Shown here: one piece after another, positions 41,149 to 43,490 of the stretch
Layout of the letters: the number at the start of each line of letters is the position of its first letter
How positions within the stretch are numbered: position 1 is the first letter of the stretch
From: an uncultured Gammaproteobacteria bacterium
Lineage (GTDB): Bacteria; Pseudomonadota; Gammaproteobacteria; Competibacterales; JAHEDQ01
Assembly (NCBI GenBank): GCA_963783675.1
Contig: CAWAOU010000016.1
Span: 98,478-162,477 of the forward strand
Direction: 5' to 3'
DNA length: 64,000 nt
Made by a program: the position numbers and the translations under genes
The notes under the pieces: model-generated
The model's input: the letters and a program-made list of their open reading frames with translations, nothing else
Databases searched by the model: none
What the model was told of the DNA's origin: nothing

Positions 41149-42078
41149 ATGCGCTGGTTTTTCGTTGTTCTGCTGGGACTGTCGCTATCCTGCGGCTGCG
41201 CTAACCGCTTTACGGCCAAGGCCGATCTGGACAGCACGGCCTGGATGCAAACCAGCCATGAGTATAGTGCGTTGGCTGTGGGTGCATTCAGTGTGGCTCG
41301 GCGGAATCTCGATGATGCGCTTCGCGACCCGACCTGGACAGCGCTGGATTCGCAGACGCCGGCCACCGATGCTGAAGCCCGTTTGCTTTCGTCACGGCCG
41401 GTGGCGGTGATTCTTGACATCGACGAGACTGTACTGAGCAGTTTGCCGTATCAAGCATGGCTGGTGAAAAACGATGAATGCTTCACCCCCGGCAGCTGGA
41501 ACGCCTGGGTCATGGAGGCAAGCGCAAAGGCCATCCCCGGCGCTTTGGAGTTTGTGCGGTACGCTTGGGCGCGAGAGGTCACCGTGTTTTATGTGTCAAA
41601 CCGTGCCCATCAGGGTGAACTCGACCTCAACGAAAACGGTCGGATCGAGTCCGTGGAACAACGGGTGCAATTGAAACCGTTCACCATTTCGAACCTGGTC
41701 ACAGAGGGCTTTCTGCCCCAGGACCGAGTTTCCAACGAGAGATCGGTGCTGTTGCGCGGTACCGTTGGCCAGGATGGGAAGGTGTTGGACGGCTGGGATT
41801 CGGCCGACAAATCCAGCCGGCGTGCCTCGATTTCGTCGGACTACCGCATCGCACTGATCATGGGTGACGATTTGAACGACTTTATCCATCTCCAAGGGCC
41901 CACGCTTGCGGTCGCAGAGGCAACCGAACTGTCATCCACCCGCTGGGGGCATTCCTGGATCATGCTACCCAATCCAATTTACGGATCCTGGGAACGTAGC
42001 CTGTACGAGTATCAGGACACGCCTTCGGAAAGCGACAAGTTCGAGGCAAAACTCAAGAGTCTTCATTCATGGCGATAG
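41149..42078 (+). CDS. class C acid phosphatase / 5'-nucleotidase, lipoprotein e(P4) family (HAD superfamily)
   Basis: I prefer the ATG at 41149, giving a lipoprotein-like MRWFFVVLLGLSLSCGC. HAD motif I is VAVILDIDETVLSS and the C-terminal motif is IALIMGDDLNDF. Confidence 0.8.
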   Translation: MRWFFVVLLGLSLSCGCANRFTAKADLDSTAWMQTSHEYSALAVGAFSVARRNLDDALRDPTWTALDSQTPATDAEARLLSSRPVAVILDIDETVLSSLPYQAWLVKNDECFTPGSWNAWVMEASAKAIPGALEFVRYAWAREVTVFYVSNRAHQGELDLNENGRIESVEQRVQLKPFTISNLVTEGFLPQDRVSNERSVLLRGTVGQDGKVLDGWDSADKSSRRASISSDYRIALIMGDDLNDFIHLQGPTLAVAEATELSSTRWGHSWIMLPNPIYGSWERSLYEYQDTPSESDKFEAKLKSLHSWR

Positions 42079-43490
42079 GCCAGGATCCTGCCTTTCCTTC
42101 AGTGCAGCGCTCAGTGGTCGAGCGTGTTCTCGGGTTGTTCACTGAAGTCCGACCGGGAGAGGGCAAAACCGCGCTGCTGATGTTTACCAACGTGTTTCTC
42201 ATTCTGTGCGCGTATTATTTTGTGAAACCGCTGCGAGAAGGCTGGATTGCCATCTCGGACGTCAGTGGCCTGTCCAAGATGGAGGTCAAGGCATATTCGA
42301 GCTTCGCTCAGAGCATCATTCTGGTGTTTGTGGTGGGTTGGTACGCCCGCCTTGCCGGACATCTCAATCGGGCTAAGCTGGTCACCTGGGCAACCCTGTT
42401 CTGCATTTCGAATCTGGTGATTTTCTGGGTACTGCAGCCCGGCTTTTTCTTCGAGGCTTTACCCTTCTCCGGCATCGTTTTCTACATATGGGTCGGGATG
42501 TTTGGCGTTTTTGTGGTGGCCCAGTTCTGGACCTTCTGTGCCGATGTCTACACCGATGAGCGGGGCAAGCGCATGCTGCCGATGATCGCCATCGGGGCAA
42601 CCTCAGGCGCGGCCGCGGGTTCGTGGATCGTGAGCCAGCTTGTGGATTCCGGTTTGGTCGACACCAAGATGCTCCTGTTGCTGGCGACAGTGCCGCTGCT
42701 CGTTTCCATTGGTTTAACCAGGATTGTCGATCGCCGCGAGTCGCAGGGTAAGGCGCCGGCGGCGGCGGCGGCGGCGGGGCAATCGGAACCGGGATCCGGC
42801 ACCGAATCTCTGCTGAGCGGCGCAAAACTGGTCCTGATGAGCCGGTTCTTGTTCGCCGCGGCCCTCGTTACGCTGTTGACCAACTGGGTAAACACCAACG
42901 GCGAAAATCTTCTGTTTCGGGTCATTCAGGAGAGCCTGGCCGGCCAAGCCTTGGAACAGGGGTTCAGTGGCACCACCGCAGTGCTCGAGTTCACCCGCGA
43001 CGGCACCACCGCGTTTTACGGTGATTTCTTTTTCTGGGTGAACATCGTCGCCCTGATACTGCAGGCATTTGTCGCTTCGCGCCTGTTGAAATACGGTGGT
43101 TTTGCGACCATTGCCTTGATGCTGCCCGTGATTGCGCTGATGTCATACTCGATCATGGCGCTGCTACCGGTCCTGGCAATCGTGAAAGTAATGAAAATTG
43201 CGGAGAACGCGACCGACTACTCGATCAACAATACCGCCCGGCACGTACTGTGGCTGCCGGTGAGTTCGGCGATGAAGTTCCGCGGCAAGCCGGCCATCGA
43301 CACCCTCTATGTTCGGCTGGGAGACGGTCTGGCCGCGATCACGGTGCTGATTGGTGTCCACGCATTCGCGCTGAGCACACAGTCATTTTTTGTCTTCAAC
43401 GTTTCACTGGTTGTTTGCTGGCTCGCCGCTACCGTGTTGCTGATACGAGAGCACCAGAAAGCTTCCGACAACAAAATGCCGGAAACTTAG
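42069..43490 (+). CDS. TLC/Npt-like (ATP:ADP-antiporter-family-like) MFS-type transporter
   Basis: 473-aa ORF with about 12 hydrophobic segments. The N-terminal region EGKTALLMFTNVFLILCAYYFVKPLREGW...SKMEVKAYSSF follows the TLC-family pattern as I recall it. Its start overlaps the phosphatase gene by 10 nt. Confidence 0.7.
   Translation: MAIGQDPAFPSVQRSVVERVLGLFTEVRPGEGKTALLMFTNVFLILCAYYFVKPLREGWIAISDVSGLSKMEVKAYSSFAQSIILVFVVGWYARLAGHLNRAKLVTWATLFCISNLVIFWVLQPGFFFEALPFSGIVFYIWVGMFGVFVVAQFWTFCADVYTDERGKRMLPMIAIGATSGAAAGSWIVSQLVDSGLVDTKMLLLLATVPLLVSIGLTRIVDRRESQGKAPAAAAAAGQSEPGSGTESLLSGAKLVLMSRFLFAAALVTLLTNWVNTNGENLLFRVIQESLAGQALEQGFSGTTAVLEFTRDGTTAFYGDFFFWVNIVALILQAFVASRLLKYGGFATIALMLPVIALMSYSIMALLPVLAIVKVMKIAENATDYSINNTARHVLWLPVSSAMKFRGKPAIDTLYVRLGDGLAAITVLIGVHAFALSTQSFFVFNVSLVVCWLAATVLLIREHQKASDNKMPET

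Follow-up and report, generated by a model that had tools for sequence, protein, structure and literature searches.

Introduction

Carriers of the TLC/NTT type are commonly seen as typical of energy parasites, and those of free-living bacteria are uncharacterised (PMC5381601). A 2017 catalogue lists NTT homologs of free-living bacteria, including NTT-HEAT fusions, but gives neither their function nor their genomic surroundings (Major, Embley and Williams, PMC5381601). Here, we analyze a gene pair from a free-living sediment bacterium of the Gammaproteobacteria, in which a class C acid phosphatase gene overlaps the gene of a distant TLC-type carrier. The pair lies in a 64,000-nt stretch of DNA (positions 98,478 to 162,477 of contig CAWAOU010000016.1, assembly GCA_963783675.1), which is referred to below as the window; L-numbers denote related loci. 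An earlier note on this DNA (the original prediction) had called TLC homologs of free-living bacteria poorly characterised, a description borne out by the 2017 catalogue (PMC5381601).

In relatives, the phosphatase–carrier unit is predicted from sequence to be the nucleotide-handling part of a larger cluster located in the cell envelope. The reading that we favor, at a probability of roughly 0.4, is that the carrier would exchange adenine nucleotides and supply periplasmic ATP, while the phosphatase would clear nucleoside monophosphate (NMP).

Results

Arrangement and Conservation of the Gene Pair

As read from the sequence, the phosphatase gene (41149..42078, + strand, 309 aa) and the carrier gene (42069..43490, + strand, 473 aa) overlap by 10 nt (42069..42078, +). 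The ATG of the carrier (42069-42071) is placed within the final codons of the phosphatase (...TGG CGA TAG), whose TAG stop occupies positions 42076-42078. Such an overlap points to co-transcription and probable translational coupling, and the two genes are thus probably one translationally coupled unit. Both frames are present in the open reading frame (ORF) listing of the window, as 41074..42078 (+) and 42069..43490 (+, 473 aa). The ATG at 41149 is a plausible phosphatase start, giving a protein that begins with MRWFFVVLLGLSLSCGC; alternative starts are a TTG at 41131 and an ATG at 41074, and a 97%-identical homolog is annotated from a TTG equivalent to 41131. The carrier start is supported by the N-terminus MA(I/M), which is common to its close homologs.

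Relatives of the carrier were sought in one genome per species, and of the 178 stretches obtained, 80 were kept; these loci originate from Gammaproteobacteria, Desulfobacterota, Myxococcota, Spirochaetes, and Gemmatimonadota metagenome-assembled genomes (MAGs). A class C phosphatase gene was found in 25 of the 80 carrier loci, and was the immediate neighbor of the carrier in 22. In these 22 loci, the phosphatase gene was either upstream on the same strand and overlapping (6 loci), downstream and convergent (15), or downstream on the same strand (1). The adjacency is kept despite changed order and orientation, which argues for a functional link between phosphatase and carrier. The junction sequence (A/G)TGGCnAT(A/G)(A/G), with the 10-nt overlap, is identical in nine loci, i.e., the window and eight others (L001-L004, L057, L081, L083, and L087), even at a protein identity of 79-88% for the carriers (95-99% for two near-duplicate pairs) and 52-79% for the phosphatases. 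When the starting point was instead the set of proteins from the phosphatase subclade described below, the carrier was always found downstream, with the same 10-nt overlap.

An Rfam search near the pair and in 11 related loci revealed neither a riboswitch nor any other RNA family. Upstream of the pair, no E. coli-type Pho box with five or fewer mismatches in 14 positions was present, and promoter and terminator scans gave no excess over shuffled controls. Base composition has only a mild GC dip (0.55-0.60 versus 0.62-0.66), which is no evidence for transfer.

Family Assignment of the Carrier

The only Pfam family above threshold for the carrier was PF03219 (TLC; 32 bits, cut-off 21), while no NCBIfam model matched it. 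The TLC match is confined to residues 369-459 (43173..43445, +). This most TLC-like stretch, KxxENATDYSxNNTxRHxLWLP...GKPAIDTLYVRLGD, covers positions 395-488 of the TLC profile and aligns to AtNTT1. Eighteen of 20 carrier homologs matched TLC, and one of 20 matched MFS_1, at E 0.4; distant representatives of the carrier family likewise match TLC weakly. When the single carrier sequence was compared with all of the PDB, the sole match was “ADP,ATP carrier protein 1” (9j3n, E 1e-4). The family profile matched AtNTT1 (9j3j, E 1.3e-5 over residues 134-451) as well as 9j3n; other MFS transporters in the PDB gave no match to the profile, the sole other match being a designed protein at E 0.08-0.3. 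An hhalign comparison with the family of a longer TLC-HEAT fusion protein (see below), which itself matches Pfam TLC at 1e-13, gave a probability of 96.3% over 319 columns.

The hydropathy profile of the carrier contains six segments, a charged 31-residue loop, and then five clear segments plus one polar candidate. An AlphaFold model based on a 20-sequence alignment had a pLDDT (predicted local distance difference test score) of only 41 and was discarded. There are 2569 homologs, with 72-98% identity among the best 120 of the 2569, and more than 200 columns are invariant in the alignment, in which the window sequence is included. The carrier is part of an extensive, separate radiation with 7218 representatives at E ≤ 1e-3, whose members are labeled “Npt1/Npt2 family” or “AAA family ATP:ADP antiporter” in databases. 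By sequence comparison, the product of 42069..43490 is a distant member of the TLC superfamily (an NTT/Npt-type inner-membrane carrier, to judge from PF03219 and the NTT1 structures), and not a generic MFS protein. The original prediction had depended on the carrier being of the TLC type rather than of an unrelated MFS family, and on the pair being conserved in relatives. TLC is the one Pfam family found, the natural proteins matched in the PDB are of the NTT1 type, and the phosphatase accompanies the carrier in the 25 loci counted above, adjoining it in 22; the prediction thus withstood both comparisons.

Family Assignment and Predicted Export of the Phosphatase

The product of 41149..42078 matches PF03767 (Acid_phosphat_B) with 124 bits (cut-off 27, E 8.9e-36). 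Class C acid phosphatases of the PDB, including e(P4) from Haemophilus influenzae, are matched at E 2e-29 to 7e-25, and e(P4) itself at E 1e-25. With NCBIfam TIGR01533, the model for e(P4) equivalogs, the protein scored 180.2 bits and so fell short of the cut-off, 216.05; this places it in a divergent subclade, and it should not be named an e(P4) equivalog. The sequence matches identify it as a divergent member of the class C, or e(P4)-type, HAD acid phosphatases/5′-nucleotidases.

Alignment to e(P4) structures 3et4 and 3ocy places the nucleophile Asp and the second Asp (e(P4) D64/D66) in HAD motif I, DIDETVL (41416..41436, +), and alignment to e(P4) places the third and fourth Asp (D181/D185) in GDDLNDF (41863..41883, +). 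In the 3et4/3ocy alignment, residues D90, D92, D240, D244, and K221 of the window protein correspond to D64, D66, D181, D185, and K161 of e(P4). The catalytic residues are invariant in all homolog groups of a 92-sequence alignment, with the motif I Asp present in 59 of 59 subclade, 16 of 16 convergent-type, and 14 of 14 generic class C homologs. The equivalent of e(P4) R126 is retained, and so is the aromatic clamp, with F112 and Y278 in place of F86 and Y221; within the subclade, the first clamp position is F or Y, and the second is Y in 59 of 59 sequences. In e(P4), F86 and Y221 sandwich the nucleobase, a role known from the e(P4)–NMP structures 3ocu-3ocz. The kept clamp suggests that the window phosphatase handles nucleotides, and the enzyme is predicted to be a nucleoside-monophosphate phosphatase. 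The e(P4)-type assignment, the two motifs, and the ends and overlap of the genes (phosphatase end at 42078, carrier start at 42069) had all been part of the original prediction and agree with what was found here.

The phosphatase belongs to a sharply separated subclade of ~310-aa proteins that are 47-61% identical to it, the next relatives being at most 42% identical. The subclade has an insertion of ~30 residues between the equivalents of E131 and K161 of e(P4), E131 being mapped unreliably in the alignment. The translation of 41149..41199 (+) reads as a signal peptide with the lipobox-like sequence ...LSLSCGC, and subclade homologs have a conserved LLC(C/A/F/Y)GC at the same site. The motif is not a canonical L-A-G-C. 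From these features, the phosphatase is likely to be exported and probably lipid-anchored.

Genes Clustered with the Carrier in Relatives

The commonest neighbors of the carrier in the 80 loci are not phosphatase genes, but genes for three other proteins, here called DK, BL1, and BL2. DK (~975-1000 aa) contains a PEP-utilizer swivel-His domain followed by a PPDK_N ATP-binding domain, and is encoded in 42 of the 80 loci. BL1 (~430 aa) and BL2 (~260-300 aa), both with a Beta-lactamase2 domain, are encoded in 44 and 45 loci, respectively, and SDF-SBP, an SDF symporter fused to an SBP_bac_3 binding domain, in seven. In the 38 carrier loci with at least 5 kb of sequence on both sides, DK was found in 27 (71%), any partner in 31, and none in seven. 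Searches that started from members of the phosphatase subclade recovered the order DK-BL1-BL2-PH-TLC (PH, phosphatase; TLC, carrier) wherever the contig extended far enough upstream. A separate scan of 80 metagenome loci centered on DK found DK and BL1 as a tight pair in 72, BL2 in 48, the carrier in 31, SDF-SBP in 28, and the phosphatase in 15. The association of the carrier with the predicted exported proteins DK, BL1, and BL2 is strong, but not obligatory.

The PPDK_N matches of DK have E values of 1e-26 to 4e-29, and its C-terminal domain resembles in sequence the ATP-binding domain of rifampin phosphotransferase and phosphoenolpyruvate (PEP) synthase. A DK model with a pLDDT of 69 gave a fold match to 5hv6_A (E 1.5e-11, TM 0.72). 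Across 54 sequences, the catalytic Ser-His of the swivel motif GEGNPLSHVQLLARN does not vary. The first ~500 residues are helical, and matched neither a Pfam family nor a fold in the PDB. Enzymes of the swivel-His/PPDK type convert ATP to AMP, inorganic phosphate (Pi), and a phosphorylated acceptor. A signal-like hydrophobic segment is found at the N-terminus of 107 of 120 DK homologs, and in 114 of 120 the ~950 residues include just two Cys, which form an invariant pair; this is the pattern of exported proteins. DK is therefore predicted to be an exported, ATP-dependent enzyme of the dikinase type. BL1 and BL2 have signal peptides and the full set of SxxK/SxN/KSG motifs, and are predicted to be exported serine hydrolases with a beta-lactamase fold. 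ORFs of 1330 aa that appeared to fuse DK to BL1 in L062, L067, and L071 were dismissed as out-of-frame artefacts of ORF calling in high-GC DNA.

A second TLC-family carrier, a 722-aa TLC-HEAT fusion, is encoded in the clusters of 15 loci, with or without the 470-aa carrier, with which it shares 21% identity. The gene in L101 (9747-11915, -; Pfam TLC 1e-13) is one example; the further loci are L016, L018, L022, L023, L078, L100, L104, L106, L109, L112, L113, L116, L120, and L143. In L100, L101, L104, and L109, it is the sole TLC-family gene seen beside DK. The copies in L113 and L116 have one in-frame stop each. That two TLC subfamilies were recruited to one cluster is consistent with a nucleotide-type substrate common to both. 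Of the 17 DK loci that extend 4.5 kb or more to each side, 10 contain a TLC-family gene. SDF-SBP, exemplified by the gene in L081 (615-2834, +), combines SDF, a Na+/H+:dicarboxylate or amino-acid symporter family, with SBP_bac_3; its presence as the only transporter in the other seven well-flanked DK loci is a hint that the pathway releases an amino-acid-like product.

These data bear on one explanation in which the carrier is not a nucleotide carrier at all, but has changed its substrate and moves a non-nucleotide solute that the DK/BL pathway makes or uses, for example a phosphorylated product or a different anionic compound; the phosphatase would then act on this solute or on a phospho-intermediate. 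A parallel exists in starch breakdown, where phosphoglucan phosphatases act after glucan-water dikinase, and the order of domains in DK (substrate, His, nucleotide-binding domain) resembles that of glucan-water dikinases. The weakness of the TLC match (32 bits; PDB E 1e-5), the lack of an NCBIfam model, and the size of the separate radiation would suit a changed substrate, as would the fact that SDF-SBP and the carrier both accompany the cluster, as product importers might. Still, the phosphatase retains the Phe/Tyr pair with which e(P4) clamps the nucleobase, the presence of two different TLC subfamilies in the same cluster fits a common nucleotide-type substrate, and a periplasmic DK would require a source of ATP in any case. 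We consider a changed substrate improbable.

In six loci of Granulosicoccaceae (L037, L044, L048, L053, L055, and L059), the carrier gene is beside a gene for an Omp85/ShlB-like outer-membrane protein of 867 aa. A PAP2-type phosphatase, i.e., a phosphatase of a different family near the same carrier, is encoded nearby in five of the six (in L055, for example, the two genes are at 2235-3017 and 3103-5691), and was not detected in L037. Duplications were also seen: the DK gene occurs twice in L077 and the BL1 gene twice in L022/L023, and L068 and L069 are two contigs of one MAG. Since the cluster or its components are duplicated in some genomes, a reduced copy of the window type could coexist with a full copy elsewhere. 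Literature on periplasmic ATP supply, on periplasmic dikinases, and on the Pfam combinations of the cluster yielded no description of a DK-BL-PH-TLC cluster; this coverage is incomplete, and the novelty of the cluster is unproven.

State of the Locus in the Window

The window holds only the PH-TLC part of the DK-BL1-BL2-PH-TLC cluster. Intermediate states can be seen in relatives. L003 (scar at 2937-3014) has a 26-residue scrap of BL1 followed by BL2, phosphatase, and carrier genes. In L057 (scar at 4475-4930), DK residues 177-196 are joined to BL1 residues 103-196, followed by a 39-residue scrap of BL2 and by intact phosphatase and carrier genes. L006 (scar at 5792-6007) has only the C-terminal third of the phosphatase followed by an intact carrier, and several loci have the carrier alone. 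The scars in these three loci document, at the sequence level, a stepwise loss of the cluster in which the carrier is retained, and often the phosphatase as well.

A second assembly of the same species (L169, a contig of 133,643 bp, of which 21 kb were covered) has the gene order of the window, with identical flanks and the same two-gene state. Between the window and L169, the carrier differs at 24 synonymous and 9 non-synonymous sites (omega 0.12), and the phosphatase at 5 and 10 (omega 0.62); the difference in constraint is significant by the Fisher test (p 0.013). An omega of 0.12 indicates that the carrier is under purifying selection with no DK nearby, and the phosphatase less so. The synonymous divergence of the carrier (window 42069-43490 versus L169 10001-11416) is 0.07, compared with 0-0.027 for the phosphatase and the compared flanking genes, and this raised value may reflect recombination with a diverged allele.

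The deletion series, which runs from the full cluster through L003, L057, the window-like state, and L006 with its phosphatase scrap to the carrier alone, raises the question of whether the window pair is a decaying remnant of the lost cluster that now has no joint function and is heading for loss. The lower constraint on the phosphatase than on the carrier would also be expected of a remnant. We regard this as a very improbable explanation: both ORFs are intact, all checked catalytic residues of the phosphatase are present, the carrier alignment retains its more than 200 invariant columns, the carrier omega is low, and the two-gene state with identical flanks recurs in L169.

Directly upstream of the phosphatase gene, the window contains two divergent genes for class I methyltransferases (39190-40020, -, and 40209-41000, +). 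Downstream, a gene for an M28 peptidase with a lipoprotein-like N-terminus (…LLSIVAC…) is convergent on the carrier (43598-44875, -); it is present in L169 and is not conserved beside the carrier in other species. The region is flanked by RND-type efflux genes, with a membrane-fusion protein and an outer-membrane factor on one side (35181-37969, -), and a 1055-aa RND pump and a membrane-fusion protein on the other (45444-50081, -). L169 has an extra 1047-aa RND pump gene adjoining the membrane-fusion protein/outer-membrane factor pair.

Discussion

The periplasm is usually taught to lack ATP. In the reading that we favor, in which ATP is supplied outward, the carrier would exchange adenine nucleotides across the inner membrane, and in a respiring, free-living cell the direction of exchange would be ATP out, and ADP, AMP, or Pi in. 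High cytoplasmic ATP and the inside-negative membrane potential would both favor outward exchange, as they do for the mitochondrial carrier. The exported ATP would reach periplasmic consumers such as DK, which outside the cytoplasm would need ATP and would release AMP and Pi. TLC carriers are the only components of the cluster from a nucleotide-transport family, and are hence the only plausible suppliers of this ATP. AMP is not known to be a substrate of the characterised TLC carriers, and so the phosphatase would hydrolyze the AMP left in the periplasm, yielding adenosine and Pi for re-uptake. We infer that three components, i.e., the TLC carrier, DK with its ATP-grasp domain, and the nucleotidase, act on adenine nucleotides at or outside the inner membrane. 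The pair in the window would serve a consumer encoded elsewhere, or would be a stand-alone unit of nucleotide exchange and salvage.

A wider form of this proposal, which we put forward tentatively and with more doubt, is that in several phyla, free-living Gram-negative bacteria use TLC-type carriers in the outward direction and thereby keep their own periplasm supplied with ATP, which powers a secreted dikinase-type enzyme that works with serine hydrolases, that the class C nucleotidase recycles the AMP, and that the window pair is the minimal core of this system. Outward use has been proposed, without experiment, for TlcA of “Candidatus Azoamicus ciliaticola” (Graf et al. 2021, PMC7969357), which provides a precedent for outward operation of a TLC protein.

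Several points weigh against outward supply. The TLC proteins characterised to date all import or exchange (PMC5381601; bioRxiv 10.64898/2026.03.31.715626), and a 2026 preprint names the mitochondrial carrier as the only known ATP exporter, with NTTs as importers (bioRxiv 10.64898/2026.03.31.715626). Transport direction and substrate are not readable from sequence, the export of DK rests on prediction, and periplasmic ATP could leak through porins. A tblastn search for DK, BL1, BL2, SDF-SBP, and TLC-HEAT gave no match within the 64-kb window. The carrier, and often the phosphatase, persist after the loss of DK (L003, L057, L006, and the carrier-only loci), and an exporter that has no client would be difficult to account for. 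In the complete chromosome behind L014/L088, the carrier, the phosphatase, and BL2 are encoded with no DK within 10 kb, and none of the DK hits is on a contig of that length; the chromosome also has a 43-residue scrap of TLC-HEAT (L014 9659-9787/L088 13665-13793). Seven of the 17 well-flanked DK loci have no TLC-family gene nearby, only SDF-SBP, and the omega of 0.62 for the window phosphatase is a sign of weak constraint.

Some of these points would be accommodated by salvage, which the original prediction had proposed in the form of a two-step scavenging module for extracellular nucleotides or NAD. Scavenging as such fits the survival of the pair, or of the carrier, after loss of the cluster. 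The serial order of trimming followed by import did not hold up, because a 5′-nucleotidase destroys the class of compounds that TLC carriers move. The carrier stands in most relatives beside DK and two hydrolases, all predicted to be exported, which makes periplasmic supply at least as likely as scavenging. What is left is a parallel arrangement, in which the carrier would take up periplasmic nucleotides or NAD-type compounds, and the phosphatase would convert NMPs and nicotinamide mononucleotide to nucleosides and Pi for other uptake systems. We judge this arrangement possible, though on the unlikely side. In Haemophilus, e(P4) works upstream of the uptake of nicotinamide riboside, which counts in its favor.

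Salvage may fit the reduced locus of the window better than outward supply does, since it accounts for a pair standing alone: a net importer is useful by itself, and the carrier would then persist under purifying selection after loss of DK and the BL proteins, and even of the phosphatase. Every characterised TLC protein imports or exchanges nucleotides or NAD (PMC5381601). The relatives come from sediment metagenomes, and sediments are a habitat in which extracellular DNA and its degradation products serve as a major source of nutrients (PMC8289736). The PAP2 phosphatase and Omp85-like protein beside the carrier in Granulosicoccaceae are also in keeping with salvage. On the other hand, salvage leaves unexplained why a predicted exported, ATP-dependent enzyme is encoded in 71% of the well-flanked carrier loci and where this enzyme obtains its ATP. 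Nor did the searches upstream of the pair reveal a Pho box or a riboswitch, be it for purines, NAD, or another ligand, and no nucleotide-salvage enzymes are among the neighbors seen.

The conserved context provides a concrete, testable hypothesis for a TLC family of free-living bacteria, namely, that it works with a periplasmic nucleotidase and, in most relatives, with a predicted exported, ATP-dependent phosphotransferase. Outward supply, if true, would overturn the rule that the periplasm has no ATP-driven enzymology, and would add a second kind of ATP exporter to the mitochondrial carrier. If salvage is true, the pair would represent a route of nucleotide uptake in sediment bacteria that feed on necromass. 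Under both readings, there are three well-defined candidates for expression and assays, namely, the carrier, the phosphatase, and the dikinase-like enzyme.

Comparison with Known Systems

The e(P4) protein of H. influenzae and other class C phosphatases (PF03767, TIGR01533; 3et4, 3ocy, 2i33, and 3pct) have in common with the window phosphatase the motifs DxDET and GDxxxDF. With e(P4), the window protein also shares D64, D66, K161, D181, D185, R126, the F86/Y221 clamp, and an N-terminal signal with a Cys. It differs in the ~30 extra residues, the non-canonical lipobox, and the TIGR01533 score below the cut-off. While the window phosphatase is coupled to a TLC-like carrier, e(P4) acts instead upstream of PnuC-type nucleoside uptake.

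DK has the ATP-grasp nucleotide-binding domain and phospho-His swivel domain of rifampin phosphotransferase, PEP synthase, and glucan-water dikinase. In contrast to these enzymes, it has a predicted signal peptide and a new helical N-terminal domain of ~500 residues, and lacks a PEP/pyruvate TIM-barrel domain.

The window carrier shares a C-terminal K...GKxxID...G(D/K) region, and probably a layout of ~12 hydrophobic segments with a central loop, with the TLC/NTT carriers (Rickettsia Tlc1, Chlamydia Npt1, and plastid AtNTT1; PF03219, TCDB 2.A.12; 9j3j and 9j3n). It is very distant from them (32 bits; E 1e-5), shorter, and comes from free-living sediment bacteria. As to the catalogued NTT-HEAT fusions (PMC5381601), the 722-aa TLC-HEAT protein is homologous by profile to the window carrier, which itself has no HEAT domain. 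The context of the window carrier suggests outward supply of nucleotides rather than the energy parasitism of TLC/NTT carriers. In this respect, the nearest described case is TlcA of “Ca. Azoamicus”, a canonical TLC protein of an obligate endosymbiont for which the recipient of ATP is the host cell; the recipient proposed here is the periplasm of the bacterium itself.

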